A stretch of DNA of 64,000 bases from Escherichia coli (GCF_044647545.1 NZ_CP172818.1); one strand, 5' to 3'; counted from the first letter of the stretch, positions 108 to 46,877 are shown. Notes: a model not told the origin generated them from the letters alone. Numbers and translations are program-made.

Positions 108-135
108 ATCAGACAGTGATTTTATCCACAAGTTC
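108..135 (-). promoter_or_regulatory. sigma-E type promoter (rpoH P3-like): -35 GAACTT, -10 TCTGAT
   Basis: Minus strand reads TTGAACTTGTGGATAAAATCACTGTCTGATAAAACAG, matching the GGAACTT-N16-TCTGA sigma-E architecture upstream of the rpoH start. Confidence 0.6.
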
Positions 136-259
136 AATGCAACGCTGTGAATAAATTACGCACAAAATGTGACATAGAGATGAAATACCGGGAAGAGACA
201 ACGGGGTCTCTTTCCCTGCTACGGAACCCATTGCAGGGAAAGAGTATAACACGCTTTTA

Positions 260-1318: not shown

Positions 1319-1979
1319 GGCCCACGCCTCCATGCAAGTGACCATCGCTCAGGGTGAGCATGCGATAGGAACGCCGCGAGATCAGGTTGATGTCGTGCGT
1401 TGCCATCAATACGGTTACCCCAACGCGGTTAAACTCTTCAAACAGACGTAAAATGCCTTCCGACAGCGCGTCGTCCAGGTTACCAGTCGGTTCGTCCGCC
1501 AGCAGTACCGCGGGCTTGTTCACCACCGCGCGGGCAATGCCAACACGCTGTTGTTCACCGCCGGAAAGCTGAATAGGGAAGTTCTTCGCTTTGTCCAGTA
1601 GCCCGACTTTATCCAGCGCCGCCGACACCCGGCGACGAATGTCATCACCGCTGGCACCGGCGATAATCAGCGGGATCGCCACGTTATCATAGACAGTACG
1701 GTCCATCAGTAGATGGTGATCCTGGAAAATCATGCCAATCTGGCGGCGCAGAAACGGAACTTCACGGTTTTTCAGACGCGTGATGTCATGGCCGCTAAAC
1801 CAGATTTTCCCGGCGCTGGGCCGCTCAATCCCACAGATCAGCTTCAGGAGGGTACTTTTCCCTGCGCCGGAATGACCGGTCAGAAACGCCATCTCACCCG
1901 GCTGCATATGGAACGTAACGCCCTGCAGCGCCTGTCTCCCACCGAGATAAGCCTTGCTGACATGTTCAAAGCGAATCAT
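1311..1979 (-). CDS. ftsE: Cell division ABC transporter ATPase FtsE
   Basis: 222 aa, Walker [13 protein letters not shown] signature LSGGEQQR; directly downstream of ftsY. Confidence 0.97.
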
Positions 1980-1981
1980 TG

Positions 1982-3469
1982 TTAATCCTCTCGGGCAAAA
2001 AGTGCCTCTATAAAGTCGTCCGCCTTAAACGGACGCAAATCCTCAATACGTTCGCCGACACCAATGTAGCGGATAGGGATACCAAACTGGTCAGCCACCG
2101 AGAAAATTACCCCGCCTTTCGCCGTGCCGTCCAGTTTCGTTAGCGTGATGCCGGTTAAGCCAACGGCTTCGTGGAACAGTTTGGCCTGGCTTACCGCATT
2201 CTGCCCGGTGCTGGCATCGATGGTCAGCATAACTTCATGCGGAGCTTCAACGTCGAGTTTCTTCATCACGCGGACGATTTTCTTCAACTCTTCCATCAGG
2301 TGCGATTTGTTCTGCAGGCGTCCGGCGGTATCGGCAATCAGGACGTCGATGTTACGCGCTTTAGCGGCCTGAATGGCATCGAAGATAACAGAAGCGGAAT
2401 CCGCACCGGTATGCTGGGCAATCACCGGAATATTGTTGCGCTGACCCCAGACCTGAAGCTGTTCAACCGCTGCTGCACGGAAAGTATCGCCCGCCGCCAG
2501 CATCACCGATTTACCCTGCTGCTCAAACTGACGTGCCAGCTTACCAATCGTCGTGGTTTTACCCACACCGTTGACGCCCACCATCAGGATCACGAACGGC
2601 GTTTTACCTTCAACATTCAGCGGCTCATCGACTTTCGCCAGAATCTCGCCCATCTCTTCTTTCAGCAGGCCATAGAGCGCCTCGGCATCACGAAGCTGCT
2701 TGCGGGATGCGCCTTCTGTCAGATTGGTGATAATTTTACGTGTGGTTTCCACGCCCACATCGGCGATCAACAGCTGTTCTTCCAGCTCTTCAAACAGATC
2801 ATCGTCGATTTTTTTACCGCGGAACAGGCTGATAAATCCGGAACCGAGATTTTCTTTGGTTTTTAACAGGCTGCGTTTCAGGCGCGCGAAGAAACCTTCT
2901 TTGGTCGGTTTTTCCTGCTCCTGAGCGATTTCTTCCACCGGCTGCTCTTCTTCTGCCGGAGGAACCACTATCACCGCCTCTTCGGCAGCCAGCGCCTGTG
3001 CTTCCAGCTCTTCGTCGGTGATTTCTTCTTTAGCCGCTTCTTCTTCCGCCGCTTCGACAATCTCTACGGTTTCCGCTTCGGCCTGCCACTCTTCTGGCGA
3101 AACCTCTTCGGCGTTGACGTCTTCCGGCAACGGCAGTTCTTCACGCTCGATAGCCACTGGCTCCGGCGTTTCTTCTGCGACCAGTTCCGGCTGTGCAACG
3201 ACTTCCGCTTCAGGCTGCGCTTTTTCACTTTCAGCAACCTGTTCAGTAACTTCCACAACGTCGGCAGCAAAAGTTTCCGCCTCGGCTTCAGTATGCGCCT
3301 GCGGCTGCTCTTCAACGGCTTGTTCAGAAGCCTTCACAGGCTCTTGCGCCTGAACGATTTCTTCTACAACTGGTTGTTCATTCTGAACTTCTGTCTCTTT
3401 TTCCGGGGTCTGCTCTTTTTGACCAAAGCCCAGCCAGGAAAAAAAGCCACGTTTTTTTTCTTTCGCCAT
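1982..3469 (-). CDS. ftsY: Signal recognition particle receptor FtsY
   Basis: 495 aa; acidic E/A/Q-rich N-terminal domain followed by SRP-GTPase NG domain (GVNGVGKTTT, DTAGR). Confidence 0.95.
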   Translation of the reverse strand: MAKEKKRGFFSWLGFGQKEQTPEKETEVQNEQPVVEEIVQAQEPVKASEQAVEEQPQAHTEAEAETFAADVVEVTEQVAESEKAQPEAEVVAQPELVAEETPEPVAIEREELPLPEDVNAEEVSPEEWQAEAETVEIVEAAEEEAAKEEITDEELEAQALAAEEAVIVVPPAEEEQPVEEIAQEQEKPTKEGFFARLKRSLLKTKENLGSGFISLFRGKKIDDDLFEELEEQLLIADVGVETTRKIITNLTEGASRKQLRDAEALYGLLKEEMGEILAKVDEPLNVEGKTPFVILMVGVNGVGKTTTIGKLARQFEQQGKSVMLAAGDTFRAAAVEQLQVWGQRNNIPVIAQHTGADSASVIFDAIQAAKARNIDVLIADTAGRLQNKSHLMEELKKIVRVMKKLDVEAPHEVMLTIDASTGQNAVSQAKLFHEAVGLTGITLTKLDGTAKGGVIFSVADQFGIPIRYIGVGERIEDLRPFKADDFIEALFARED

Positions 3470-3618
3470 TTGCGACTACACTCCTCGCTGTTGCTTCATG
3501 GCACAGCGTTAACGCTATGTACATAGCAGCTAAAAAAATGATGAAATAGTCTATCACTTAACTTAATTCACATCACCGCCTGCAAGTATGTGTTATCTGG
3601 CGGATTGAGCAATTTATC

Positions 3619-4215
3619 ATGAAAAAACCGAATCATTCCGGCAGCGGCCAAATCCGCATTATTGGCGGGCAGTGGCGAGGCCGTAAACTCCCGGTTCCTG
3701 ATAGCCCAGGTCTGCGCCCCACCACCGACCGCGTACGCGAAACGTTGTTTAACTGGCTGGCTCCGGTCATTGTTGACGCCCAATGTCTGGATTGCTTCGC
3801 CGGAAGCGGCGCGCTGGGGCTGGAAGCGTTATCGCGCTACGCTGCGGGGGCCACGTTGATTGAGATGGATCGTGCGGTTTCTCAGCAGTTAATTAAGAAT
3901 CTGGCGACACTAAAAGCAGGCAATGCACGCGTGGTGAACAGCAACGCGATGTCATTCCTGGCGCAAAAAGGCACACCGCATAATATCGTGTTTGTCGATC
4001 CACCGTTCCGCCGTGGATTGTTAGAAGAGACGATAAATTTACTGGAAGATAACGGCTGGCTGGCTGACGAAGCCCTGATTTATGTCGAAAGCGAAGTCGA
4101 AAACGGTCTGCCCACTGTTCCGGCGAACTGGTCATTACATCGGGAAAAAGTGGCGGGTCAGGTGGCTTATCGGCTGTATCAACGCGAAGCACAAGGAGAA
4201 AGTGATGTTGATTAA
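3619..4215 (+). CDS. rsmD: 16S rRNA (guanine966-N2)-methyltransferase RsmD
   Basis: 198 aa; methyltransferase motifs (LDCFAGSG, VFVDPPF); divergent from ftsY. Confidence 0.93.
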   Translation: MKKPNHSGSGQIRIIGGQWRGRKLPVPDSPGLRPTTDRVRETLFNWLAPVIVDAQCLDCFAGSGALGLEALSRYAAGATLIEMDRAVSQQLIKNLATLKAGNARVVNSNAMSFLAQKGTPHNIVFVDPPFRRGLLEETINLLEDNGWLADEALIYVESEVENGLPTVPANWSLHREKVAGQVAYRLYQREAQGESDVD

Positions 4216-4474
4216 TATTGGACGTTTGTTAATGCTCTGCGTTTGGGGATTTTTAATCCTCAACCTGGTGCATCCCTTCCCGCGTCCGCTGAATATTTTT
4301 GTTAACGTGGCGCTGATTTTTACCGTGCTGATGCATGGTATGCAGCTGGCGCTATTGAAATCCACTTTGCCGAAAGATGGCCCGCAGATGACCACCGCCG
4401 AAAAGGTGCGGATTTTCCTTTTCGGCGTGTTTGAACTGCTGGTCTGGCAGAAGAAATTTAAAGTTAAAAAATAA
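4205..4474 (+). CDS. yhhL: Small inner-membrane protein YhhL
   Basis: 89 aa hydrophobic protein from ATG 4205 (GTG at 4202 also in frame); overlaps rsmD 3' end by 11 nt. Confidence 0.8.
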   Translation: MLINIGRLLMLCVWGFLILNLVHPFPRPLNIFVNVALIFTVLMHGMQLALLKSTLPKDGPQMTTAEKVRIFLFGVFELLVWQKKFKVKK

Positions 4475-4476
4475 CC

Positions 4477-4836
4477 TTATTGTTCGCCTACAAAGCTGAC
4501 AAAGCGCGTTCCTTTATAGCTCAGCGTACCTTTATCGCCCACTGTCAGGGCGTGGTACTGCTGGGCGTCGAGGCGAAACGTCTGCTCCATTCCTCCGCTT
4601 TGCGGTTTGAAGCTTGCCTCATAGCGCATACTGGTGCCTGCCGGAGTCACTTCCTGCTGGCGCGAACGGCGATCGTTAATCGGTTTTTCCCGCTTGTTGC
4701 TCACCACCACCAGCTTTTGCTGGAGCGGTGCCATATCATTATCAGCTTTTTCCCGTCGTTGTTGCATAAAACGAAACGATGCGGCGACGATGATTAAGCC
4801 AATGATAACAATAAAGAAAAGAGGTGGTTTACTCAT
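4477..4836 (-). CDS. yhhM: Uncharacterized membrane-anchored protein YhhM
   Basis: 119 aa ORF with single N-terminal TM helix; position between yhhL and yhhN. Confidence 0.85.
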   Translation of the reverse strand: MSKPPLFFIVIIGLIIVAASFRFMQQRREKADNDMAPLQQKLVVVSNKREKPINDRRSRQQEVTPAGTSMRYEASFKPQSGGMEQTFRLDAQQYHALTVGDKGTLSYKGTRFVSFVGEQ

Positions 4837-4976
4837 CTTTATCCCTCATCGGAAAATGCGGAAATAAGCATACCCTGCCAGTTATGGTGTTGTCATCCGT
4901 CCACCCTCGCCACTAAACTGGAAGCAAGACCGTAGGCATTCCGCTTACGAAAAAATAACGAATTCAAGGAACTAAG

Positions 4977-5603
4977 ATGCTTTGGTCGTTTATCGCTGTC
5001 TGTCTTTCCGCATGGCTATCTGTGGATGCATCGTATCGTGGGCCAACCTGGCAACGCTGGGTGTTTAAACCGTTAACCCTTCTTCTCCTGCTGTTGCTGG
5101 CCTGGCAAGCGCCGATGTTCGACGCCATTAGCTATCTGGTGCTGGCGGGGCTGTGTGCCTCACTGCTGGGCGATGCGCTAACCCTGTTGCCACGTCAACG
5201 TCTGATGTACGCCATCGGCGCGTTTTTCCTCTCGCACCTGCTGTACACCATCTATTTCGCCAGTCAGATGACGCTCTCCTTCTTCTGGCCTCTGCCGTTG
5301 GTGCTGTTGGTTCTGGGCGCGCTGTTACTGGCGATTATCTGGACGCGTCTGGAAGAGTATCGTTGGCCTATCTGCACGTTTATCGGCATGACGCTGGTGA
5401 TGGTGTGGCTGGCAGGTGAACTGTGGTTCTTCCGTCCGACCGCTCCGGCACTCTCTGCGTTTGTCGGCGCTTCGTTACTGTTTATCAGTAACTTTGTCTG
5501 GCTGGGTAGTCACTATCGCCGACGCTTCCGTGCGGACAACGCGATTGCTGCGGCCTGCTACTTTGCTGGTCACTTCCTCATCGTCCGCTCGCTGTATCTC
5601 TGA
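4977..5603 (+). CDS. yhhN: Inner membrane protein YhhN (YhhN/TMEM86 family)
   Basis: 208 aa polytopic membrane ORF. Confidence 0.88.
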
Positions 5604-5609
5604 TAAAAC

Positions 5610-5640
5610 TTGACTCTGGAGTCGACTCCAGAGTGTATCC
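5610..5640 (+). promoter_or_regulatory. zntA promoter with ZntR (MerR-type) operator: -35 TTGACT, long spacer carrying dyad ACTCTGGAGTCGACTCCAGAGT
   Basis: Perfect 22-bp palindrome 5613..5634 between -35 and -10 elements, about 40 nt upstream of the zntA ATG. Confidence 0.8.
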
Positions 5641-5676
5641 TTCGGTTAATGAGAAAAAACTTAACCGGAGGATGCC

Positions 5677-7875
5677 ATGTCGACTCCTGACAATCACGGC
5701 AAGAAAGCCCCTCAATTTGCTGCGTTCAAACCGCTAACCACGGTACAGAACGCCAACGACTGTTGCTGCGACGGCGCATGTTCCAGCACGCCAACGCTCT
5801 CTGAAAACGTCTCCGGCACCCGCTATAGCTGGAAAGTCAGCGGCATGGACTGCGCCGCCTGTGCGCGCAAGGTAGAAAATGCCGTGCGCCAGCTTGCAGG
5901 CGTGAATCAGGTGCAGGTGTTGTTCGCCACCGAAAAACTGGTAGTCGATGCCGACAATGACATCCGTGCCCAGGTTGAATCTGCGGTGCAAAAAGCGGGC
6001 TATTCCCTGCGCGATGAACAGGCCGCCGACGAACAACAAGCATCACGCCTGAAAGAGAATCTGCCGCTGATTACGCTAATCGTGATGATGGCAATCAGCT
6101 GGGGTCTGGAGCAGTTCAATCATCCGTTCGGGCAACTGGCGTTTATCGCGACCACGCTGGTTGGGCTGTACCCGATTGCTCGTCAGGCATTACGGCTGAT
6201 CAAATCCGGCAGCTACTTCGCCATTGAAACCTTAATGAGCATAGCCGCTATTGGGGCGCTGTTTATTGGCGCAACGGCTGAAGCTGCGATGGTGTTGCTG
6301 CTGTTTTTGATTGGTGAACGACTGGAAGGCTGGGCCGCCAGCCGCGCGCGTCAGGGCGTTAGCGCGTTAATGGCGCTGAAGCCAGAAACCGCCACGCGTC
6401 TGAGTAACGGTGAGCGTGAAGAGGTGGCGATTAACAGCCTGCGGCCTGGCGATGTGATTGAAGTCGCCGCAGGTGGGCGTTTGCCTGCCGACGGTAAACT
6501 GCTCTCACCGTTTGCCAGTTTTGATGAAAGCGCCCTGACCGGAGAATCCATTCCTGTGGAGCGCGCGACGGGCGATAAAGTTCCTGCAGGAGCCACCAGC
6601 GTAGATCGTCTGGTAACGCTGGAAGTGCTGTCAGAACCGGGTGCCAGCGCCATTGACCGGATTCTGAAACTGATCGAAGAAGCCGAAGAGCGCCGCGCGC
6701 CCATTGAGCGGTTTATCGACCGCTTCAGCCGTATTTATACGCCAGCGATTATGGCCGTCGCCCTGCTGGTAACGCTGGTGCCGCCGCTGCTGTTTGCCGC
6801 CAGCTGGCAAGAGTGGATTTATAAAGGGCTGACGCTGCTGCTGATTGGTTGCCCGTGTGCTTTAGTTATCTCCACGCCCGCGGCGATTACCTCCGGGCTG
6901 GCGGCAGCAGCGCGTCGTGGGGCGTTGATTAAAGGCGGCGCGGCGCTGGAGCAGCTGGGTCGTGTTACCCAGGTGGCGTTTGATAAAACCGGTACGCTGA
7001 CCGTCGGTAAACCGCGCGTTACCGCGATTCATCCGGCAACGGGTATTAGTGAATCTGAACTGCTGACACTGGCGGCGGCGGTCGAGCAAGGCGCGACGCA
7101 TCCACTGGCACAGGCCATTGTGCGCGAAGCACAGATTGCTGAACTCGCCATTCCCACCGCCCAATCACAGCGGGCGCTGGTCGGGTCTGGCATTGAAGCG
7201 CAGGTTAACGGTGAGCGCGTGTTGATATGCGCTGCCGGGAAACATCCCGCTGATGCATTTGCTGGTTTAATTAACGAACTGGAAAGCGCCGGGCAAACGG
7301 TAGTGCTGGTAGTACGTAACGATGACGTGCTGGGTATCATTGCATTGCAGGATACTCTACGCGCCGATGCTGCAACTGCTATCAGTGAACTGAACGCGCT
7401 GGGCGTCAAAGGGGTGATCCTCACCGGCGATAATCCACGCGCAGCGGCGGCAATTGCCGGGGAGTTGGGGCTGGAGTTTAAAGCGGGCCTGTTGCCGGAA
7501 GATAAAGTCAAAGCGGTGACCGAGCTGAATCAACATGCGCCGCTGGCGATGGTCGGTGATGGTATTAACGACGCGCCAGCGATGAAAGCTGCCGCCATCG
7601 GGATTGCAATGGGTAGCGGCACAGACGTGGCGCTGGAAACCGCCGATGCAGCATTAACCCATAACCACCTGCGCGGTCTGGTGCAAATGATTGAACTGGC
7701 ACGCGCCACTCACGCCAATATCCGCCAGAACATCACTATTGCGCTGGGGCTGAAAGGCGTTTTCCTCGTCACGACGCTGTTAGGGATGACCGGACTGTGG
7801 CTGGCGGTGCTGGCAGATACGGGTGCGACGGTGCTGGTGACGGCGAATGCGTTAAGGCTGTTGCGCAGGAAATAA
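5677..7875 (+). CDS. zntA: Zn(II)/Cd(II)/Pb(II)-translocating P-type ATPase ZntA
   Basis: 732 aa; N-terminal metal-binding GMDCAAC, CPC transmembrane motif, DKTGTLT phosphorylation site, GDGINDAP hinge. Confidence 0.97.
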   Translation: MSTPDNHGKKAPQFAAFKPLTTVQNANDCCCDGACSSTPTLSENVSGTRYSWKVSGMDCAACARKVENAVRQLAGVNQVQVLFATEKLVVDADNDIRAQVESAVQKAGYSLRDEQAADEQQASRLKENLPLITLIVMMAISWGLEQFNHPFGQLAFIATTLVGLYPIARQALRLIKSGSYFAIETLMSIAAIGALFIGATAEAAMVLLLFLIGERLEGWAASRARQGVSALMALKPETATRLSNGEREEVAINSLRPGDVIEVAAGGRLPADGKLLSPFASFDESALTGESIPVERATGDKVPAGATSVDRLVTLEVLSEPGASAIDRILKLIEEAEERRAPIERFIDRFSRIYTPAIMAVALLVTLVPPLLFAASWQEWIYKGLTLLLIGCPCALVISTPAAITSGLAAAARRGALIKGGAALEQLGRVTQVAFDKTGTLTVGKPRVTAIHPATGISESELLTLAAAVEQGATHPLAQAIVREAQIAELAIPTAQSQRALVGSGIEAQVNGERVLICAAGKHPADAFAGLINELESAGQTVVLVVRNDDVLGIIALQDTLRADAATAISELNALGVKGVILTGDNPRAAAAIAGELGLEFKAGLLPEDKVKAVTELNQHAPLAMVGDGINDAPAMKAAAIGIAMGSGTDVALETADAALTHNHLRGLVQMIELARATHANIRQNITIALGLKGVFLVTTLLGMTGLWLAVLADTGATVLVTANALRLLRRK

Positions 7876-7976
7876 GGCAAACCGATCGCAACATTGAGCG
7901 CGATCGGTCCCCTCGCTCCTCTGGGGAGAGGGTTAGGGTGAGGGGAAAAGGCGGCATCGAAGCCAATCTTCCCCCA

Positions 7977-8222
7977 TCAACCGCCTTTACGAATCAAATA
8001 ACGATAAGGCAGTCCATCCGTCTCTTTCGCAACCAGTTCGTGTTCCATAAAGGTACAAAACCCAGGAATATCGCGGGTCGTCGCCGGATCGTCAGCAATA
8101 ATCAGCAACGTTTCACCTGGCTGCATATTGCGCACTGTTTTGCGCACCATCATTACTGGTTCCGGGCAGCGCAGGCCAAGTGCGTCGAGTGTGTGGTCAG
8201 GGCTGGAAAAGAGATCGGTCAT
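7977..8222 (-). CDS. tusA: Sulfur carrier protein TusA
   Basis: 81 aa with conserved CPxP motif (LRCPEPV). Confidence 0.95.
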
Positions 8223-8442
8223 TTTCTTCTCATCACATAAAAAAACGGCGCTAGTTTACGCCCTGTGAGTCCGTAAGCAAACCAGGTTAACGATTGCGTG
8301 AAAATTAACCATTGCATTGTTAACGTAAAGCAGTATCATGCGGCGGCTCGAAAAAAGGGTCAGCACGTTATTATGTTAAGGTAACAGACGTGTCGTACGT
8401 ATTGGGTTCCCTCACCCCAATGGTTAATCAAAAAGGTACAAT

Positions 8443-9108
8443 ATGAACGTTTTCTCGCAAACTCAACGCTATAAGGCGTTGTTCTGGTTATCGTTATTTC
8501 ATCTTCTGGTGATCACCTCCAGTAACTATCTGGTTCAGCTTCCCGTATCCATTTTTGGTTTCCATACCACCTGGGGCGCGTTTAGCTTTCCGTTTATTTT
8601 CCTTGCTACCGACCTGACTGTGCGTATTTTTGGCGCACCGCTGGCCCGTCGTATCATCTTTGCGGTGATGATCCCGGCGTTACTGATCTCCTACGTCATC
8701 TCGTCGCTGTTCTATATGGGTTCCTGGCAGGGATTCGGCGCGCTCGCCCACTTCAACCTGTTTGTCGCCCGTATCGCCACCGCCAGTTTCATGGCCTACG
8801 CGCTGGGGCAAATCCTCGACGTGCACGTTTTTAACCGCCTGCGTCAGAGTCGTCGCTGGTGGCTGGCACCGACGGCTTCCACCCTGTTTGGTAACGTCAG
8901 CGACACGCTGGCCTTCTTCTTCATTGCCTTCTGGCGTAGCCCGGATGCCTTTATGGCTGAACACTGGATGGAAATCGCGCTGGTCGATTACTGTTTCAAA
9001 GTGTTAATCAGTATCGTTTTCTTCCTGCCAATGTATGGCGTATTACTCAATATGCTGTTGAAAAGACTGGCAGATAAATCCGAAATCAACGCTTTGCAGG
9101 CGAGTTAA
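8443..9108 (+). CDS. yhhQ: Queuosine precursor transporter YhhQ
   Basis: 221 aa polytopic membrane ORF. Confidence 0.9.
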   Translation: MNVFSQTQRYKALFWLSLFHLLVITSSNYLVQLPVSIFGFHTTWGAFSFPFIFLATDLTVRIFGAPLARRIIFAVMIPALLISYVISSLFYMGSWQGFGALAHFNLFVARIATASFMAYALGQILDVHVFNRLRQSRRWWLAPTASTLFGNVSDTLAFFFIAFWRSPDAFMAEHWMEIALVDYCFKVLISIVFFLPMYGVLLNMLLKRLADKSEINALQAS

Positions 9109-9180
9109 AGGTTCGTTATCAGAGTTGTGATAAGATGGATGAATGAGCCGTTATGGCCGTTTATCGAAAGGAAGAAGTCA

Positions 9181-9738
9181 ATGCGCAATCTGGTTAAATA
9201 TGTCGGAATTGGCCTGCTGGTTATGGGGCTTGCGGCCTGTGATGATAAAGACACTAACGCTACGGCGCAGGGTTCAGTCGCGGAAAGTAACGCTACCGGG
9301 AATCCCGTCAACCTGCTTGATGGCAAGTTAAGTTTCTCGCTGCCAGCGGATATGACCGACCAGAGCGGTAAGCTGGGAACGCAGGCTAATAACATGCATG
9401 TCTGGTCCGACGCCACCGGGCAAAAAGCAGTCATCGTCATCATGGGCGATGATCCGAAAGAAGATCTGGCGGTGCTGGCGAAGCGCCTGGAAGATCAGCA
9501 ACGTAGCCGCGATCCGCAGCTGCAAGTGGTAACCAATAAAGCCATTGAGCTGAAAGGTCACAAAATGCAGCAGTTAGACAGCATTATCTCCGCGAAAGGC
9601 CAGACGGCGTACTCTTCCGTTATTCTGGGTAACGTGGGTAATCAACTGCTAACCATGCAAATTACGCTGCCCGCTGACGATCAGCAAAAAGCACAGACCA
9701 CCGCAGAAAACATCATTAATACGCTGGTTATTCAGTAA
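9181..9738 (+). CDS. dcrB: Periplasmic lipoprotein DcrB
   Basis: 185 aa from [11 protein letters not shown]; lipobox LAAC; longer ORF 9127.. is an upstream extension. Confidence 0.9.
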
Positions 9739-9741
9739 GTT

Positions 9742-10959
9742 TTAAGATGATGAGATGGCCTCAGGTACTTCCACCGGAGGCCGTTTTTTTAATCGCCACG
9801 TCAGTAATAACGCGATTGCGACCAGTCCCGCCGCCGCCAGATAAATCACCGGGACGCCCGCCCAACTCATCACCAGCCCAGCCAGTGGTCCGGTCACGCC
9901 AAGCGATAAATCCATAAATACGGTGTAAGTTGCCAGCGCCGCCCCCTGATTTTGCTGCGGAACCGCTTTTACCGCCACTACGCCCAATGCCGGGAACACC
10001 AGCGAAAACCCCGCCCCCGCGAGTAAGACGCCGATTTTCGCCATCCACGGCATAGTCGCCACGCCAACCAGTAGCAGGCCGATTATCTCAACGCTAAAGC
10101 AAATCATCGCCACGTTTAAGCCGCCGATACGGTTAATGCCGTTAGGAAATAACAAACGCGTACCGACAAACGCACAGCTAAACAGCGTCAGCGCGAAAGC
10201 CGCACCGTCCCAACCTTTAGCGTCATAAAACAGCGTGATAAAGGTGGCGATAACGCCAAATCCGGCGGAAGCCAGTGCCAGCGCCATACCGTACAGCCAG
10301 ACGCGCCCAAGCACCGCGCGAAACGGCAGCGGTTTGCCTTTACTGGCTTTTACCGTCGGACGCGGGATCGCCAACAAAATGGCCACCAGCGCCACGCCCA
10401 TAATGATTAACGCTAACGCCTGCAAGCCGCCCCAGTGATAAAACACGACACCTAACGGCGCACCCATCGCCATCGCCCCGTAAGTGACAATGCCGTTCCA
10501 CGAAATCACCCGCCCGATATGCAGCGAACCAACCACGCCAACGCCCCATAGGGTCGATCCCGTTCCGGCAAAACTTTGCCCAATCCCAAGGATCACGCGC
10601 CCCAGGCACAGTAATAACAGGCTGATGACGGGCAGACTGGCGGTTAATCCTGCCGTCAGATACCCCAAACCGCTCAAAAAGCAGCCGCATAAACCGAAGA
10701 CGACAATCTTTTTGGGTCCCAGCAAATCGGCGTAACGTCCGGCATGAGGGCGGCTCAGCAAGGTGGCGAAATATTGCAGGCTGATAACCAATCCTGCCCA
10801 GAAAGCGCTAAAGCCCATCACATCATGGACATAGCCCGGTAATACAGCGAGCGGCAACCCGATGGTGAGGTAGCTGGCGAAGTTAAACATGACAATGGAG
10901 ACAATGCGCAAATTCAGGCGCAATCCGTTTAGCGCGGGTTCGGCTACGGGTTCGGGCAT
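9742..10959 (-). CDS. yhhS: MFS transporter YhhS
   Basis: 405 aa from MPEPVAEPALNG; 12-TM MFS-like hydrophobicity; stop only 3 nt from dcrB stop. Confidence 0.9.
   Translation of the reverse strand: MPEPVAEPALNGLRLNLRIVSIVMFNFASYLTIGLPLAVLPGYVHDVMGFSAFWAGLVISLQYFATLLSRPHAGRYADLLGPKKIVVFGLCGCFLSGLGYLTAGLTASLPVISLLLLCLGRVILGIGQSFAGTGSTLWGVGVVGSLHIGRVISWNGIVTYGAMAMGAPLGVVFYHWGGLQALALIIMGVALVAILLAIPRPTVKASKGKPLPFRAVLGRVWLYGMALALASAGFGVIATFITLFYDAKGWDGAAFALTLFSCAFVGTRLLFPNGINRIGGLNVAMICFSVEIIGLLLVGVATMPWMAKIGVLLAGAGFSLVFPALGVVAVKAVPQQNQGAALATYTVFMDLSLGVTGPLAGLVMSWAGVPVIYLAAAGLVAIALLLTWRLKKRPPVEVPEAISSS
9757..9790 (+). terminator. Rho-independent terminator for dcrB, embedded in the 3' coding end of convergent yhhS
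   Basis: GGCCTC...GAGGCC stem followed by a 7-nt T run (9784..9790). Confidence 0.55.
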
Positions 10960-11090
10960 GAGGATCACCACATTTTTACAACAGTGTTTCATTTTTACCA
11001 CGTGCTGACGTGAAAATCAGCAGTAAGAATCAGAATATTGCTGGCGTGACTCCCGCTACACTTAATACAAAAAGTCACAAGGAAGCCCCA

Positions 11091-12140
11091 ATGGAAACCC
11101 CTCAACCCGATAAAACGGGCATGCACATTCTGCTCAAGCTGGCCTCGCTGGTGGTGATCCTCGCGGGAATTCACGCAGCGGCAGATATCATTGTGCAGCT
11201 GTTACTGGCGCTGTTTTTTGCCATCGTCCTCAACCCGCTCGTCACCTGGTTTATTCGTCGGGGAGTACAACGCCCCGTTGCCATTACGATTGTGGTGGTG
11301 GTGATGCTGATCGCACTAACCGCGCTGGTCGGCGTACTGGCGGCATCGTTTAACGAATTTATCTCTATGCTGCCGAAGTTTAATAAGGAGCTGACGCGCA
11401 AACTTTTTAAATTGCAGGAGATGTTGCCTTTTCTTAATTTGCATATGTCGCCGGAGCGAATACTGCAGCGGATGGACTCGGAAAAAATGGTTACCTTCAC
11501 CACGGCGCTAATGACCGGGCTTTCCGGGGCAATGGCGAGCGTGCTTTTGCTGGTGATGACCGTAGTTTTCATGCTGTTTGAAGTGCGCCACGTCCCTTAC
11601 AAAATGCGTTTTGCGTTGAATAATCCACAGATTCACATCGCCGGACTACACCGCGCCTTAAAAGGTGTTTCGCACTATCTTGCATTGAAGACACTGCTAA
11701 GTTTATGGACAGGCGTAATCGTCTGGCTGGGGCTGGCGCTAATGGGCGTACAGTTTGCGCTGATGTGGGCAGTACTGGCGTTTTTGCTCAACTACGTGCC
11801 CAATATCGGCGCGGTAATTTCCGCCGTACCGCCAATGATTCAGGTGCTGCTGTTTAATGGCGTTTACGAATGTATTCTGGTCGGCGCATTGTTTTTAGTG
11901 GTCCATATGGTCATCGGCAATATTTTAGAACCACGGATGATGGGCCATCGCCTGGGGATGTCCACCATGGTGGTATTTCTTTCATTGTTAATTTGGGGAT
12001 GGCTGCTCGGCCCGGTAGGGATGCTACTTTCGGTACCATTAACCAGCGTGTGTAAAATCTGGATGGAAACCACCAAAGGCGGTAGCAAACTGGCGATTTT
12101 ACTGGGACCGGGCAGACCGAAAAGTCGATTACCGGGATGA
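11091..12140 (+). CDS. yhhT: AI-2E family (PerM-like) transporter YhhT
   Basis: 349 aa from METPQPDKTG; polytopic membrane protein. Confidence 0.88.
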   Translation: METPQPDKTGMHILLKLASLVVILAGIHAAADIIVQLLLALFFAIVLNPLVTWFIRRGVQRPVAITIVVVVMLIALTALVGVLAASFNEFISMLPKFNKELTRKLFKLQEMLPFLNLHMSPERILQRMDSEKMVTFTTALMTGLSGAMASVLLLVMTVVFMLFEVRHVPYKMRFALNNPQIHIAGLHRALKGVSHYLALKTLLSLWTGVIVWLGLALMGVQFALMWAVLAFLLNYVPNIGAVISAVPPMIQVLLFNGVYECILVGALFLVVHMVIGNILEPRMMGHRLGMSTMVVFLSLLIWGWLLGPVGMLLSVPLTSVCKIWMETTKGGSKLAILLGPGRPKSRLPG

Positions 12141-12194
12141 GGCGACAAGTGTTACGATACGCACTTTCATTTTCCATTAAACGTTGGCCCTGAT

Positions 12195-12782
12195 ATGTAT
12201 CGGATAGTTCTGGGGAAAGTTTCGACCTTAAGCGCAGCTCCTCTGCCACCGGGTTTACGCGAGCAAGCACCGCAAGGTCCACGACGCGAACGCTGGCTGG
12301 CGGGGCGTGCATTGCTTTCGCACACGCTTTCCCCGCTACCGGAGATCATCTATGGCGAACAAGGCAAACCTGCATTCGCGCCGGAAACGCCGCTATGGTT
12401 CAACTTAAGCCATAGCGGTGACGATATCGCCCTGCTGTTGAGCGATGAAGGCGAAGTCGGCTGCGATATCGAAGTGATTCGCCCGCGCGCCAACTGGCGC
12501 TGGCTGGCGAACGCCGTATTCAGCCTTGGGGAACATGCCGAGATGGACGCCGTGCATCCTGATCAGCAACTGGAAATGTTCTGGCGCATCTGGACGCGCA
12601 AAGAAGCCATCGTTAAACAGCGTGGCGGCAGCGCCTGGCAAATCGTCAGCGTAGACAGCACCTATAACTCCTCGCTGTCAGTCAGCCATTGTCAGCTAGA
12701 AAATTTAAGCCTGGCGATCTGCACCCCTACCCCCTTTACGCTCACCGCCGACAGTGTGCAATGGATCGATTCAGTTAACTGA
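12195..12782 (+). CDS. acpT: 4'-phosphopantetheinyl transferase AcpT
   Basis: 195 aa; PPTase-like motifs (FNLSHSGD, WTRKEA). Confidence 0.9.
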   Translation: MYRIVLGKVSTLSAAPLPPGLREQAPQGPRRERWLAGRALLSHTLSPLPEIIYGEQGKPAFAPETPLWFNLSHSGDDIALLLSDEGEVGCDIEVIRPRANWRWLANAVFSLGEHAEMDAVHPDQQLEMFWRIWTRKEAIVKQRGGSAWQIVSVDSTYNSSLSVSHCQLENLSLAICTPTPFTLTADSVQWIDSVN

Positions 12783-12828
12783 TCCGCCCACCCGACTGCC
12801 CATCTATTGATCCAGAACAGGTAATCAG

Positions 12829-12856
12829 TATGACGAATACTTAAAATCGTCATACT
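12829..12856 (+). promoter_or_regulatory. NikR operator GTATGA-N16-TCATAC in the nikA promoter
   Basis: Exact match to the two-half-site NikR operator pattern 37 nt upstream of nikA; possible FNR-like half site TTGAT at 12808. Confidence 0.85.
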
Positions 12857-12892
12857 TATTTCCGCCATCTATTTTAATCCATTGGGGTTACC

Positions 12893-14467
12893 ATGTTCTC
12901 TACACTCCGCCGCACTCTATTTGCGCTGCTGGCTTGTGCGTCTTTTATCGTCCATGCCGCTGCACCAGATGAAATCACCACCGCCTGGCCGGTGAATGTC
13001 GGGCCACTAAACCCGCACCTTTACACGCCTAACCAAATGTTCGCCCAGAGCATGGTTTATGAACCACTGGTGAAATATCAGGCAGACGGTTCGGTGATCC
13101 CGTGGCTGGCAAAAAGCTGGACCCATTCAGAAGATGGCAAAACCTGGACCTTCACCCTGCGTGATGATGTGAAATTCTCTAACGGTGAACCGTTTGATGC
13201 AGAGGCCGCGGCAGAAAACTTCCGCGCTGTGCTCGACAACCGTCAACGTCACGCCTGGCTGGAGCTGGCAAACCAGATTGTTGATGTCAAAGCTCTCAGT
13301 AAAACCGAGCTGCAAATCACCCTGAAAAGCGCCTACTACCCTTTCCTGCAAGAACTGGCCCTGCCCCGTCCTTTCCGCTTTATCGCCCCCTCGCAGTTTA
13401 AAAACCATGAAACCATGAATGGGATTAAAGCGCCGATTGGCACCGGGCCGTGGGTTTTGCAGGAATCGAAACTGAATCAGTACGATGTCTTCGTCCGTAA
13501 CGAAAACTACTGGGGCGAAAAGCCGGCGATTAAGAAGATCACTTTTAACGTCATCCCAGACCCGACTACCCGCGCAGTAGCGTTTGAAACCGGCGATATC
13601 GATCTACTATACGGTAATGAAGGGCTATTACCGCTCGATACCTTCGCCCGCTTTAGCCAGAACTCGGCTTACCACACCCAACTGTCACAGCCGATCGAAA
13701 CCGTGATGCTGGCGCTCAATACTGCCAAAGCCCCCACCAACGAGCTGGCAGTCCGTGAAGCTCTTAATTACGCGGTAAACAAAAAATCGCTGATCGATAA
13801 CGCGTTGTATGGCACCCAGCAGGTCGCCGACACCCTGTTTGCCCCTTCCGTGCCCTATGCCAATCTCGGCCTGAAACCGCGCCAGTACGATCCGCAGAAA
13901 GCAAAAGCGTTGCTGGAACAAGCAGGCTGGACGCTGCCCGCAGGCAAAGACATCCGCGAGAAAAATGGTCAGCCGCTGCGCATTGAACTGTCGTTCATCG
14001 GCACCGATGCGTTAAGCAAATCAATGGCCGAAATCATTCAGGCTGATATGCGCCAGATTGGCGCGGATGTCACGCTGATCGGCGAAGAAGAGAGCAGTAT
14101 CTATGCTCGTCAGCGCGACGGTCGTTTTGGCATGATTTTCCACCGTACCTGGGGCGCGCCATACGATCCACACGCCTTCCTGAGTTCAATGCGCGTACCG
14201 TCGCACGCTGACTTCCAGGCACAGCAAGGTTTAGCCGACAAGCCACTGATTGATAAAGAGATTGGCGAAGTGCTGGCGACACACGACGAAACACAACGTC
14301 AGGCACTGTATCGCGACATTCTGACCCGTCTGCATAACGAGGCGGTTTATCTGCCCATCAGCTATATCTCAATGATGGTGGTTTCAAAACCGGAACTGGG
14401 TAACATCCCCTACGCGCCGATCGCCACCGAAATCCCGTTCGAACAGATTAAACCGGTGAAACCTTAA
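12893..14467 (+). CDS. nikA: Nickel ABC transporter periplasmic binding protein NikA
   Basis: 524 aa with signal peptide; first gene of nik operon. Confidence 0.96.
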
Positions 14468-15407
14468 TGTTGCGTTATGTATTACGCCGCTTTCTGCTGC
14501 TGATCCCGATGGTGCTCGCCGCCTCGGTGATCATTTTTCTGATGCTGCGCCTCGGCACCGGCGACCCGGCGCTCGATTATCTGCGTCTGTCTAACCTGCC
14601 GCCGACGCCGGAAATGCTGGCTTCTACCCGCACCATGCTGGGGCTGGATCAGCCGTTGTACGTGCAGTACGGAACCTGGTTGTGGAAAGCGCTGCATCTT
14701 GACTTTGGTATCTCATTCGCCAGCCAACGCCCGGTGCTGGACGATATGCTGACCTTCCTGCCCGCCACGCTGGAGCTGGCGGGTGCGGCGCTGGTATTAA
14801 TTCTGCTCACTTCCGTGCCGCTCGGCATCTGGGCGGCGCGCCATCGCGACCGCCTGCCGGATTTCGCCGTGCGTTTTATCGCGTTTCTTGGCGTGTCGAT
14901 GCCTAACTTCTGGTTGGCGTTTTTACTGGTGATGGCATTTTCAGTGTATCTGCAATGGCTGCCCGCGATGGGTTACGGCGGCTGGCAGCACATCATTTTG
15001 CCTGCGGTTTCCATCGCTTTTATGTCGCTGGCGATTAACGCGCGTCTGCTGCGCGCCAGTATGCTGGACGTCGCCGGTCAGCGTCATGTGACCTGGGCGC
15101 GACTGCGCGGCCTGAACGACAAACAGACCGAACGCCGCCACATCCTGCGCAATGCCTCGCTGCCGATGATCACCGCCGTGGGGATGCACATTGGCGAACT
15201 GATTGGCGGGACGATGATTATCGAAAACATCTTTGCCTGGCCGGGCGTCGGGCGCTATGCGGTGTCGGCGATTTTTAACCGTGACTATCCAGTGATCCAA
15301 TGCTTTACGCTGATGATGGTGGTGGTTTTTGTGGTCTGTAATTTGATTGTCGATTTGCTCAACGCCGCGCTGGACCCGCGTATTCGTCGTCATGAAGGAG
15401 CGCACGC

Positions 15408-15411
<4 letters not shown>
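14467..15411 (+). CDS. nikB: Nickel ABC transporter permease NikB
   Basis: 314 aa; start overlaps nikA stop. Confidence 0.96.
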
Positions 15412-18235
<2,824 letters not shown>

Positions 18236-18278
18236 CTATTAAAATTAAGTTCGTACGTCTGTAAAAAAGGATTTTACG

Positions 18279-21200
18279 ATGAGCGGAAAACCGGCGGCGC
18301 GTCAGGGCGACATGACGCAGTATGGCGGTAGCATTGTTCAGGGTTCTGCCGGGGTGCGTATTGGTGCCCCCACCGGCGTGGCCTGTTCAGTGTGCCCCGG
18401 CGGGGTGACGTCCGGTCATCCGGTCAATCCGCTGCTGGGTGCAAAGGTCCTTCCCGGCGAAACCGACCTTGCCCTGCCCGCCCCGCTGCCGTTCATCCTC
18501 TCCCGCACCTACAGCAGTTACCGGACAAAAACGTCCGCGCCGGTGGGGAGCCTCGGCCCCGGCTGGAAAATGCCTGCGGATATCCGCTTACAGCTGCGCG
18601 ATAACACACTGATACTCAGTGATAACGGCGGCAGAAGCCTGTATTTTGAGCACCTGTTTCCCGGTGAGGACGGTTACAGCCGCAGCGAGTCACTCTGGCT
18701 GGTGCGCGGCGGCGTGGCGAAACTGGATGAAGGTCACCGGCTGGCCGCACTCTGGCAGGCGCTGCCGGAAGAGCTTCGCCTGAGTCCGCATCGTTATCTG
18801 GCGACGAACAGTCCACAGGGGCCGTGGTGGGTACTCGGCTGGTGTGAGCGGGTGCCGGAGGCGGATGAGGTGCTGCCTGCGCCGCTGCCGCCGTACCGGG
18901 TACTGACCGGGCTGGTGGACCGCTTCGGGCGCACACAGACGCTCCACCGCGAAGCCGCCGGTGAATTCAGCGGCGAAATCACCGGCGTGACGGATGGTGC
19001 CGGGCGTCACTTCCGGCTGGTACTGACCACGCAGGCGCTGCGGGCAGAAGAGGCCCGGCAGCAGGCCATTTCCGGCGGGACGGAACCGTCCGCTTTTCCT
19101 GATACCCTGCCGGGTTACACCGAATATGGCCGGGACAACGGTATCCGCCTGTCCGCCGTGTGGCTGACGCACGACCCGGAATATCCGGAGAATTTACCTG
19201 CCGCGCCGCTGGTGCGCTATGGCTGGACGCCACGCGGCGAACTGGCGGTGGTGTATGACCGCAGCAATACACAGGTGCGCAGCTTTACTTACGATGATAA
19301 ATACCGGGGCCGGATGGTGGCGCACCGTCACACGGGCCGGCCGGAAATCCGTTACCGTTACGACAGTGACGGGCGGGTGACAGAACAGCTAAACCCGGCA
19401 GGCTTAAGCTACACCTATCTGTTATGAGCAAAACCGCATCACCATCACCGACAGCCTGAACCGCCGTGAAGTCCTGCATACGCAGGCGAAGGCGGCCTGA
19501 AGCGGGTGGTGAAAAAGGAACACGCGGACGGCAGCGTCACGCAGAGTCAGTTTGACGCGGTGGGCAGGCTTAAGACACAGACGGATGCCGCAGGCCGGAC
19601 AACAGAATACAGCCCGGATGTGGTGACGGGCCTCATCACGCGCATCACCACGCCGGATGGCAGGGCATCGGCGTTTTACTATAACCACCACAGCCAGTTA
19701 ACGTCAGCCACCGGGCCTGACGGGCTGGAAATACGCCGGGAATATGATGAATCCGGCCGTCTGATTCAGGAAACCGCCCCTGACGGCGATATCACCCGCT
19801 ACCGTTATGATAATCCACACAGTGACTTCCCCTGCGCAACGGAAGATGCCACCGGCAGCCGGAAAACCATGACGTGGAGCCGTTACGGTCAGTTGCTGAG
19901 CTTCACCGACTGTTCCGGCTACCAGACCCGTTATGACCATGACCGCTTCGGGCAGATGACGGCGGTGCACCGCGAGGAAGGCCTGAGCCAGTGCCGCGCA
20001 TACGACAGCCGTGGACAGTTAATTGCCGTGAAAGACACGCAGGGCCATGAAACGCGGTATGAATACAACATCGCCGGTGACCTGACCGCCGTCATTGCCC
20101 CGGACGGCAGCAGAAACGGGACACAGTACGATGCGTGGGGAAAGGCCATCCGTACCACGCAGGGCGGGCTGACCCGCAGTATGGAATACGATGCTGCAGG
20201 ACGGGTCATCCGCCTGACAAACGAAAACGGCAGCCACACCACCTTCCGTTACGATGTACTCGACCGGCTGATACAGGAAACCGGCTTTGACGGCCGCACA
20301 CAGCGTTACCACCACGACCTGACCGGCAAACTTATCCGCAGCGAGGATGAGGGGCTGGTCACCCACTGGCACTATGACGAAGCAGACCGCATCACGCAGC
20401 GAACGGTGAATGGTGAAACCGCAGAACAGTGGCGGTACGACGAACGCGGCTGGCTGACACAAATCAGCCATCTCAGCGAAGGGCACCGGGTGACGGTGCA
20501 TTACGGGTATGATGAGAAAGGCCGCCTGACCGGTGAGCGCCAGACGGTGCATCATCCGCAGACGGAAGCACTGCTCTGGCAGCATGAGACCAGACATGCG
20601 TACAACGCGCAGGGGCTGGCGAACCGCTGTATACCGGACAACCTGCCCGCCGTGGAATGGCTGACTTATGGCAGTGGTTACCTGGCAGGGATGAAACTCG
20701 GCGACACACCGCTGGTGGAGTACACCCGCGACCGCCTGCACCGGGAAACGCTGCGCAGCTTCGGCCGTTATGAACTCACCACCGCTTATACCCCTGCCGG
20801 GCAGTTACAGAGCCAGCACCTGAACAGCCTGCAGTATGACCGCGATTACACCTGGAACGACAACGGCGAACTCATTCGCATCAGCAGCCCGCGCCAGACC
20901 CGGAGTTACAGCTACAGCGACTCCGGCAGGCTGACCGGCGTTCACACCACCGCAGCGAACCTGGATATCCGCATCCCGTATGCCACGGACCCGGCAGGTA
21001 ACCGCCTGCCCGACCCGGAGCTGCACCCGGACAGCACCCTCAGCATGTGGCCGGATAACCGTATCGCCCGTGACGCGCACTATCTTTACCGGTATGACCG
21101 TCACGGCAGGCTGACGGAGAAAACCGACCTCATCCCGGAAGGGGTTATCCGCACGGATGATGAGCGGACTCACCGGTACCATTACGACAGCCGGCACCGG

Positions 21201-22514
21201 CTGGTGCACTACACGCGGACACAATATGCAGAGCCGCTGGTCGAAAGTCGCTATCTTTACGACCCGCTGGGCCGCAGGGTGGCAAAACGGGTGTGGCGGC
21301 GTGAACGGGACCTGACGGGCTGGATGTCGCTGTCACGGAAACCGGAAGTGACCTGGTACGGCTGGGACGGCGACCGCCTGACCACGATACAGAACGACAG
21401 AACCCGCATCCAGACGGTTTATCAGCCGGGGAGCTTCACACCACTCATCAGGGTCGAAACCGCCACCGGTGAGCAGGCGAAAACGCAGCGCCGCAGCCTG
21501 GCGGATGCGCTTCAGCAGTCCGGCGGCGAAGACGGTGGCAGTGTGGTGTTCCCGCCGGTGCTGGTGCAGATGCTCGACCGGCTGGAAAGTGAAATCCTTA
21601 CTGACCGGGTGAGTGAGGAAAGCCGCCGCTGGCTGGCATCGTGCGGCCTGACGGTGGCGCAGATGCAAAACCAGATGGACCCGGTGTACACGCCGGCGAG
21701 AAAAATCCACCTGTACCACTGCGACCATCGCGGCCTGCCGCTGGCGCTTGTCAGCACGGAAGGGGCAACAGAATGGTGCGCAGAATACGATGAGTGGGGC
21801 AACCTGCTGAATGAAGAGAACCCGCACCAGCTGCAACAGCTTATCCGCCTGCCGGGTCAGCAGTATGATGAGGAGTCAGGCCTGTATTACAACCGCCACC
21901 GCTATTATGACCCGCTGCAGGGGCGGTATATCACTCAGGATCCGATTGGGCTGAAGGGGGGATGGAACCTGTATGGATATCAATTGAATCCGATATCAGA
22001 CATCGACCCCCTGGGTTTATCTATGTGGGAGGATGCAAAATCGGGGGCATGTACTAATGGTCTTTGCGGCACACTATCCGCTATGATAGGTCCAGATAAG
22101 TTTGATTCTATAGATAGCACCGCATATGACGCCTTAAATAAAATAAATAGCCAATCTATTTGCGAAGATAAAGAGTTCGCTGGTTTAATATGTAAGGATA
22201 ATAGTGGCAGATATTTCTCAACAGCACCTAACCGAGGGGAAAGAAAAGGATCATATCCATTCAATAGCCCTTGCCCTAATGGTACTGAGAAAGTATCAGC
22301 TTATCATACTCATGGTGCAGATAGTCATGGAGAATATTGGGACGAAATATTTTCAGGCAAAGATGAGAAAATAGTTAAAAGTAAAGATAACAATATCAAG
22401 TCATTTTATTTGGGCACGCCCAGTGGTAATTTTAAAGCAATAGATAACCACGGGAAGGAAATAACAAACGGAAAAGGATTACCTAATGTCTGCAGAGTTC
22501 ATGGTAATATGTAA
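18279..22514 (+). pseudogene. rhsB: Rhs core protein with C-terminal toxin tip (RhsB-like), interrupted by a compensated frameshift at about 19422..19484
   Basis: Two same-frame ORFs (18279..19427, 19506..22514) with YD-repeat content, PxxxxDPxGL core end at about 21945..22020 and an AT-rich tip; two in-frame TGA codons between them. Confidence 0.85.
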
Positions 22515-22869
22515 AAAAATATTTTTTAGGAACTGTGTCATTGTATCTTTGTTTGTTTTTACATACAACACATGGGCGCAGTGTAATAATAATATTAAAA
22601 TAATGCGCAAGTATGAAAGTGAGGGTAAATATACCGTTAGAAATTTGGTTAAAAATAAAGCTATAGCATTGGAATTAGCTGAGATATATGTTAAGAATCG
22701 TTATGGGCAGGATGCCGCAGAAGAAGAAAAACCATATAAAATCACTGAGTTAACAACAAGTTGGGTTGTTGAAGGCACCATTCACTCAGACCAAATTGCT
22801 GGTGGGGTTTTTATTATAGAAATAGGCAAAAATGATGGGGTAATTCTGAATTTTGGCCACGGAAAATAA
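22486..22869 (+). CDS. yhhH: Putative Rhs immunity protein YhhH
   Basis: 127 aa AT-rich ORF overlapping the rhs stop; alternative start at 22501. Confidence 0.7.
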
Positions 22870-22973
22870 GTATGTAAGGATAATCAAACATCGTGTGCGC
22901 TGATGGCAGAGTAGGTGGAGGACTCCAGACAGTCAAACGATAAAAAAAGATAGCCTTTATGGAGGCTCCTGCA

Positions 22974-23357
22974 ATGTCAAATACATACCAGAAAAGAAAG
23001 GCAAGTAAAGAGTATGGTTTATATAATCAATGTAAGAAACTAAATGATGATGAATTATTTCGCTTACTTGATGATCACAATTCCTTGAAAAGGATTTCAT
23101 CTGCCAGAGTATTACAGTTAAGAGGTGGGCAAGACGCTGTTAGATTGGTAATTGAGTTCTGCTCTGATAAAAATTATATCCGTAGAGATATCGGAGCATT
23201 TATACTCGGGCAAATAAAAATTTGCAAAAAATGCGAAGATAATGTGTTTAATATTTTGAACAATATGGCATTGAATGATAAGAGCGCTTGCGTTCGAGCT
23301 ACGGCAATCGAGTCAACGGCCAGGGAAAGATCATCAAAAGTACACTTTTTGTACTAA
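22974..23357 (+). CDS. Hypothetical protein, possibly an orphan Rhs-associated immunity protein (helical-repeat-like)
   Basis: ORF 22959..23357; likely start 22974 after GGAGG; AT-rich, between yhhH and H-repeat transposase. Confidence 0.4.
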   Translation: MSNTYQKRKASKEYGLYNQCKKLNDDELFRLLDDHNSLKRISSARVLQLRGGQDAVRLVIEFCSDKNYIRRDIGAFILGQIKICKKCEDNVFNILNNMALNDKSACVRATAIESTARERSSKVHFLY

Positions 23358-23464
23358 ATAATTCGCATTTTATGTTTAAAAATTGAGATATTCCTCATTA
23401 CCTGAAGCTGTTTTTTATTGCTTATACATGATCAAATACTCCTTACATAATTAAGGAGAACAAA

Positions 23465-46815: not shown

Positions 46816-46877
46816 TATATTCAGGTTATAAAACCAGCATGTCCTTGCAATAGTTTCAGTATGGTATTAGCATTGAT

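Follow-up and report, generated by a model that had tools for sequence, protein, structure and literature searches.

An rhs core gene of the rhsB type in the Escherichia coli record NZ_CP172818.1 (GCF_044647545.1) is interrupted by two offsetting single-nucleotide indels that were found in this assembly alone, and the double frameshift is most probably an artefact of the consensus or the assembly, not a property of the bacterium. The whole stretch of DNA analysed, 64,000 nucleotides long, is called the window here, and all positions are counted from its first letter.

Two offsetting indels split the rhs gene

The following features describe the split gene.

18279..22514, plus strand: whole rhs core gene, rhsB type, 4236 nt, read without the indels (repaired product 1411 aa)
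18279..19427, plus strand: 5′ ORF fragment, 382 aa, ending in LSYTYLL and a stop, with a match to RHS_core
19418, plus strand: extra T (+1 lesion); in the alignment CCTA-CTGT becomes CCTATCTGT
19419..19484, plus strand: out-of-frame stretch of 66 nt (22 codons), which holds both TGAs (19425 and 19467)
19485..19486, plus strand: GG run (−1 lesion), GGG in all other alleles; CAGGGC becomes CAGGC
19506..22514, plus strand: 3′ ORF, 1002 aa, GTG start, with YD repeats, the Rhs-associated core, PxxxxDPxGL and the C-terminal toxin domain

The two ORFs lie in the same frame and are separated by 78 nt, where TGA 19425-19427 and TGA 19467-19469 are the sole in-frame stops. The original prediction had described two same-frame Rhs ORFs with this spacing and these two stops, all of which are present in the sequence. 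It had also read the adjacent frame as open and Rhs-like over the gap, and translation of that frame gave a 22-residue Rhs peptide.

Five intact alleles were aligned with the window gene, taken from the two ST648-type paralogues, three draft genomes, GMF065 and K-12. Compared with them, the window rhs contains exactly two indels, an additional T at 19418 and a missing G at 19485-19486. These alignments thereby place the +1 insertion that had been expected near 19422 and the compensating −1 change expected near 19483. In the alignment against K-12 rhsB that had been proposed as a check, here extended to 6357 nt of the rhsB element, the two lesions are the sole internal gaps. At the extra T, the intact alleles read TAC TGT TAT GAG and the window reads TAT CTG TTA TGA. 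The lesions are 67 nt apart, 22 codons are out of frame, and the original frame is regained at the missing G. When the T was undone and the G restored, an ORF of 1411 codons without a stop was obtained; a single continuous ORF of ∼1400 aa exists only once both indels are undone. Two 1-nt indels that offset each other interrupt a bona fide rhs core sequence, and the pattern of ORFs is not due to chance.

Identity of the gene and of its toxin and immunity module

The repaired protein is identical over 1411 aa to a protein named 'rhs element protein RhsB' at NCBI (P0001; EGO4471703.1 and others; UniRef UPI0019DDF71E), which is on record from six other contigs. The precomputed Pfam matches of P0001 are DUF6531, RHS_repeat, TEN_YD-shell, RHS and a C-terminal DUF4329 (PF14220). 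With the NCBIfam profile RHS_core (NF041261), the 5′ ORF matched profile positions 1-389 with 786.8 bits and the 3′ ORF matched positions 419-1261 with 1749.6 bits. Both ORFs together cover the profile from end to end, the ∼29 absent positions being the frameshifted stretch, and neither ORF by itself reaches the 2000 bits that RHS_core sets as its whole-protein cut-off. The 3′ ORF contains YD repeats (TIGR01643, E = 3.4e-40) and a TIGR03696 match at residues 761-838, and the Rhs-associated core ends in PxxxxDPxGL, as read in the repaired translation. PxxxxDPxGL is the motif which demarcates the toxin domain in Rhs proteins (PMC3150448).

Three features follow the rhs gene.

22486..22869, plus strand: yhhH, predicted cognate immunity gene, 127 aa, overlapping the 3′ end of rhs (assigned by identity to the L007 gene)
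22959..23357, plus strand: yibA-like gene, partial (the K-12 yrhC pseudogene), NF007244 profile positions 1-126 of 285
23465..24601, plus strand: ISAs1-family transposase (H-repeat, yhhI type), intact, 378 aa, NF033564

The putative variable C-terminal toxin domain (DUF4329) is thus accompanied by a small downstream gene of predicted immunity function. The gene in locus L007 that is identical to the window yhhH matches PF15631 (Imm-NTF2-2), and YhhH is annotated at the corresponding gene in WB61 and K-12. The yibA-like gene is cut by ISAs1 at 23320/23321, and this junction is collinear with K-12. The Rhs/YD-repeat polymorphic toxins (Poole et al. 2011, PMC3150448) have the YD repeats, the RHS core and PxxxxDPxGL in common with the window gene, and they are also alike in the variable C-terminal domain (here DUF4329) and in the immunity gene immediately downstream. 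The window differs from these toxins by the interrupted frame alone and shows no new domain or arrangement. From its domains and its neighbours, the underlying gene is predicted to be an ordinary RhsB-type polymorphic toxin with a YhhH immunity module.

The indels are private to one assembly

A BLAST search with 19400-19510 covered 3,900 complete E. coli genomes and 20,522 rhs places in them; the top match was 96.4%, so all four local differences are absent from the other copies. With 19250-19650, the top match was 98.8% among 12,370 places in 3,893 genomes. Neither lesion haplotype was found by exact-pattern scans of the metagenome and species-representative contig collections, in which the downstream pattern fixed CAG before the gap and would let a CAA GGC allele escape. 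Such an allele would still show at ∼98% in the BLAST search with 19400-19510, and none did. For the 382-aa and the 1002-aa product alike, the sole source on record is one NCBI contig of 4,499,902 bp. A heritable pseudogene should carry a lesion that recurs in independent sequence data from its lineage, and this one was seen in a single assembly. Both indels are private to that assembly.

This distribution also bears on the idea that the split is functional. Ribosomes could shift by +1 near TTA-TGA (19422-19427) and by −1 near 19485, or the gene could be expressed as two separate fragments, an N-terminal piece and a 1002-aa C-terminal toxin piece starting from GTG 19506. We regard either form as extremely improbable. 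The net frame is regained, the stop after the first lesion superficially resembles stop-stimulated +1 shifting, and an in-frame GTG is present at 19506. However, the split is not conserved, since the frame is continuous in every other copy examined. No slippery heptamer or prfB-like context was recognised on reading the sequence, and each fragment alone falls short of a whole RHS_core protein. Programmed frameshifting would be marked by a conserved slippery site with a stimulator, and the other alleles are simply continuous. The original prediction had considered the 1002-aa portion potentially expressible from GTG 19506; this found no support, as no promoter-like site was found upstream of that GTG. 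The 1002-aa fragment is without the N-terminal third of the protein (RHS_core profile 1-418). The part used for delivery by known Rhs effectors is N-terminal, and the fragment would be without it. For want of conservation, motif or promoter, programmed frameshifting was rejected, and so was a C-terminal ORF expressed as a separate unit.

The lesions lie at a seam between two rhs copies

From 18265 to 19156 the window has 100% identity with the rhs that ST648-type strains carry at the rpmE locus. From 19497 to 23320 it matches loci L001 and L007 at 100%, and equals the yibF-locus rhs element of ST648-type strains. One feature lies at the seam of the 5′ part (rpmE-locus type) and the 3′ part (yibF-locus copy).

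19157..19496, plus strand: patch of 340 nt to which the six differences from the closest intact allele are confined

The allele encoding P0001 lies at the rpmE locus in the draft genomes GCA_026540165.1, GCA_052717865.1 and GCA_015288025.1. Its DNA is 99.86% identical to the window over 5061 nt, and it has the same yhhH and the same beginning of yibA downstream. It differs from the window in its locus (priA-rpmE, against nikR-yhhJ in the window), in its continuous frame and by six nucleotides, every one of which is inside 19157-19496. The six differences are 19157 T>C, 19385 G>A, +T 19418, 19479 C>T, −G 19485 and 19496 G>C. The four substitutions are third-position changes, and all are synonymous because the repaired protein equals P0001. 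19157C and 19385A are common to the K-12 and GMF065 alleles, and 19479T and 19496C are private.

The extra T falls where the K-12 type (TATCAG) and the ST648 type (TACTGT) differ by a multi-base change of 4 nt. In the window, TATCTGTTATGAG consists of K-12 'TATC' followed by ST648 'TGTTATGAG', and divergence from K-12 peaks around the extra T, with 8 differences in 18 nt. None of the 56 variable sites in the downstream ISAs1 copy carries a private base, and the base at each of these sites is known from ST648 ISAs1 copies or from K-12 yhhI. It is a mosaic of the ISAs1 copies of this strain type plus one base otherwise found only in K-12.

The substitutions in the patch count against a purely artefactual origin of this region. 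Random noise would rarely make four of four patch changes synonymous (0.25^4, or ∼0.004). These substitutions look like real allelic differences, so at least part of the patch would be genuine, and in principle the indels could be genuine too. In addition, the missing G, 19479T and 19496C have no explanation as carry-over from K-12, and natural rhs genes are often pseudogenes. The view that the patch substitutions are noise was rejected, since four of four are synonymous, compared with two of ten in the chu cluster described below. We take them as real variation or as template carry-over and treat the indels alone as errors.

The locus in K-12 and in ST648-type relatives

The gene order in the window is nikABCDE-nikR (12893-18214), rhs, the overlapping small ORF, the partial yibA-like gene and ISAs1, followed by yhhJ-rbbA on the opposite strand. 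The RhsB element of K-12 (rhsB-yhhH-yrhC-yhhI between nikR and yhhJ) has the same locus and gene order. It is collinear with the window over 6357 nt at 96.9% identity, the rhs length is 4236 nt in both, and the yibA′/ISAs1 junction is alike. K-12 rhsB is a continuous ORF, whereas the window rhs has +T 19418 and −G 19485. The left spacer is 48 nt in the window and 187 nt in K-12, and both window spacers are scrambled.

18214..18264, no strand: left element junction, scrambled deletion-rich spacer of 48-50 nt (compared with the 187 nt of K-12 and with the ST648 nikR-hicB spacer)
24612..24662, no strand: right element junction, A-rich scrambled spacer with K-12-type (TTATCCGGC) and ST648-type pieces

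Within the left junction, 13 nt (TAAAATTAAGTTC) agree exactly with the ST648 spacer, and the ST648-type piece of the right junction reads ATCAATA.TAT.ACA.CACAATATG.

The window rhs is nearer to the two ST648-type rhs paralogues than to K-12. In WB61 and FDAARGOS_497, the close ST648-type relatives examined, hicAB (777 nt) and no rhs lies between nikR and yhhJ. In none of the complete genomes searched does an rhs lie next to an ST648-like nikE-nikR; the top match of this kind was 97.6%. An origin from Shigella or another Escherichia, considered when the first matches were just 97-99%, was rejected on finding flanks 100% identical to ST648-type E. coli. A K-12 × ST648 hybrid strain was also rejected, as the element is 96.9%, not 100%, identical to K-12. 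The presence of the rhsB element at nikR-yhhJ in the living strain is uncertain.

Sequence quality across the window

Compared with FDAARGOS_497 (NZ_CP033850.1), there are zero substitutions in 1-18213, 24663-49500 and 61007-64000, so that ∼46 kb of the window is free of substitutions relative to ST648-type genomes. Strains named ST648, ECONIH1 and WB61 match the first 12 kb at 100% identity. The remaining parts are of a different quality. The 656 nt at 49664-50319 is G-depleted junk with a GC skew of about −0.7, and is a deletion-rich shadow of an ST648 island. The chu heme-uptake cluster at 53379-61006 has 64 substitutions and 70 indel events relative to FDAARGOS_497, and none of these changes is common to any of the 5,420 genomes compared. 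The isolated substitutions in chu are synonymous in two cases and non-synonymous in eight, and are therefore unselected. The window lacks chuS and the 3′ end of chuA.

The four bad segments, namely the two element junctions, 49664-50319 and the chu cluster, coincide within ∼15 nt with those parts of the window for which K-12 MG1655 has no homologue. Scars were also found at breakpoints elsewhere, and these are the only other private changes: a private 3-nt deletion at 51395/6 is at the exact insertion point of the K-12 IS5 in yhiS, and the sole private indel in the clean part (−C 32013) is at a complex indel between K-12 and ST648. The same record thus carries other private, unselected, indel-rich errors at repeats and breakpoints. 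Indel events occur at ∼1 per 109 nt in the noisy parts, which makes two indels in a 340-nt patch unremarkable. Neighbouring chu indels less than 100 nt apart are of opposite sign in 18 cases and of the same sign in 26. Local compensation was accordingly rejected as a special signature of noise, opposite signs being roughly a one-in-two coincidence in chu.

Origin of the double frameshift

The original prediction had left two alternatives, an inactivated gene or paired errors. The second has gained from the private indels, the identity of the repaired product to P0001 and the other defects of the window, and inactivation is the less favoured of the two. The indel compensation has no biological or selective sense because the shifted stretch contains two stops.

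The indels, their privacy, the identity of the repaired product and the error pattern of the window are matters of direct observation, and these footprints suggest what the generating pipeline may have been. The record resembles a consensus that was built from an ST648-type strain on top of a K-12-like template, or polished with such a template as guide. Its sequence is perfect wherever both genomes are collinear, and its consensus is damaged wherever structural or dense multi-base differences set them apart. The extra T looks as if a complex K-12/ST648 variant had been applied in part only, and the missing G, 67 nt downstream, would be a one-base shortening of a GGG run. The rhsB element itself perhaps came in with the template, its sequence then being replaced by that of reads from the two other rhs loci of the strain. 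Consensus errors from reference bias or hybrid assembly are a known class of artefact. Those of the window are like that class in being private, dominated by indels and placed at structural differences from the template and at repeats, and also in the chimeric repeat copies without private bases. Unlike noise of that class, the four synonymous substitutions of the patch look like real variation.

The same footprints can be read with the element left in place. The rhsB insertion in an ST648-type background would then be genuine and assembled de novo from noisy long reads; polishing alone would have been biased, for example by short reads preselected on K-12, and the indels would be unpolished long-read errors. 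This is possible but less likely than not. It accounts equally well for the noise in segments without K-12 homology and for the errors at K-12 breakpoints. The chu island is near full length, unlike the product of a pure template consensus, and the extra T is at the most K-12-divergent spot of the region. On the other hand, the junction spacers have lost about half of their bases, for which a forced alignment is likelier than an unpolished consensus, and pieces of K-12 and ST648 spacer are mixed at the right junction. Private bases are nearly absent (0 of 56 ISAs1 sites, 2 in 5 kb of rhs), which would be odd for an independent third copy.

It is unlikely that a genuine rhsB element at nikR-yhhJ has a core gene with two real 1-nt indels. 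These could have arisen independently, or together through a single complex event at the junction of a gene conversion between rhs paralogues. Because of the TGAs in the shifted stretch, translation would end after 382 aa and no full-length Rhs would be made, and the YhhH immunity gene could still be useful. The lesions are exactly at the seam of the rpmE-type and yibF-type sequences, a plausible conversion junction. The patch substitutions are synonymous and two of them equal the nikR-locus alleles of K-12 and GMF065, giving the look of a remnant of a native third copy. The layout rhsB-yhhH-yrhC-yhhI and the locus are both canonical, and rhs fragments and pseudogenes are common in annotated genomes. 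Against this, each indel is confined to one assembly, and two real mutations within 67 nt are very unlikely given 46 kb of flank without substitutions relative to the relatives. The stops between the indels deprive compensation of any selective meaning, the window is error-ridden in and around the element, and the close relatives examined have no rhs at nikR-yhhJ. That both indels are real and come from one event at a conversion junction, a third and freshly homogenised rhsB having been inactivated at the crossover, is in our view quite improbable.

Were that single event true, the window would give a snapshot of error-prone repair during the concerted evolution of rhs repeats, possibly with an 'orphan-like' toxin and immunity module left behind. 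If the lesion is real by any route, it adds one more to the inactivated Rhs toxin genes of E. coli and is of minor interest. What the preferred reading, a consensus or assembly artefact, offers in practice is a warning on the quality of this record, with its scrambled junctions, junk stretch, frameshifted chu cluster and scars at K-12 breakpoints. Given such probable template or polishing damage, calls of a 'pseudogene', a 'split gene' or a 'novel junction' in the window should be distrusted, and this distrust extends to the presence of the rhsB element in the ST648-type background.

The nikR-yhhJ locus

The close relatives examined (WB61 and FDAARGOS_497) carry a hicAB toxin-antitoxin pair between nikR and yhhJ, at positions 18218-18994 of L003, an ST648-type comparison sequence of this locus; the hicA of this pair is annotated with an internal stop. 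At the same place the window has a 6.4-kb K-12-type rhsB element (18214-24662), and it is doubtful that this element is real in the sequenced strain.

The chu heme-uptake cluster

When the chu cluster, from chuA to chuV (53379-61006), is compared with the 5,420 complete E. coli genomes that match it, 64 substitutions and 70 indel events set it apart from every one of them, and all of its genes are fragmented. Among the isolated substitutions within the cluster, 2 are synonymous and 8 are non-synonymous. Both flanks of the cluster are perfect. The divergence looks like unpolished or low-quality sequence rather than biology. At 53369/53370, directly after dctR, 1394 nt of ST648-type genomes are absent, corresponding to 7240-8633 of L010, the comparison sequence of the chu/dctR region. 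With this segment, chuS is lost and chuA lacks its 3′ end; homology to K-12 stops at this breakpoint too.

Differences in yhiS, the DUF4049 gene and the arsenic region

The yhiS-like gene has a 3-nt deletion (TTA) at 51395-51396 that was seen in this assembly only. It is located at the exact nucleotide where K-12 MG1655 carries IS5 (insH11) with its TTAG target duplication, and it reads as if 1202 nt, not 1199 nt, had been excised from a K-12 template. A private C>T substitution is found at 51365, 30 nt upstream of the deletion. Another private change, a deletion of one C adjoining a run of seven T at 32013, truncates a DUF4049 gene (ORF 31984..33534); at this site K-12, where yhiL is a pseudogene, and ST648-type genomes differ by a complex indel.

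A stretch of 656 nt (49664-50319) is extremely G-poor, with a GC skew of about −0.7 and runs like AAAAACAAAAAAAAAAAAAAAAA. In alignment it is a shadow, rich in deletions (67% identity, 193 gaps), of part of an ST648 island, namely its right half; this island encodes a permease and an ArsR/SmtB regulator, and its left half is missing from the window. A REP-like stretch 3′ of arsC (49501-49663) is about 90% like K-12 with small indels and is not found in ST648-type genomes; either carry-over from the template or natural variation may account for it. Between dinQ and arsR, two direct repeats of about 115 nt each, 88% alike (46862-47206), match what is annotated in K-12 as the small-RNA genes agrA/agrB and are an ordinary feature.

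rhs 3′ ends at other loci

In three draft-genome loci, L007-L009 (GCA_026540165.1, GCA_052717865.1 and GCA_015288025.1; positions 6001-10236), the rhs gene at the rpmE locus has the RhsB-type C-terminal toxin and is accompanied by yhhH and yibA, whereas FDAARGOS_497 has an RhsC-type end at rpmE and the RhsB-type end at yibF. This difference could mean that rhs genes at different loci have swapped their 3′ ends, or that repeats were mis-joined from short reads.
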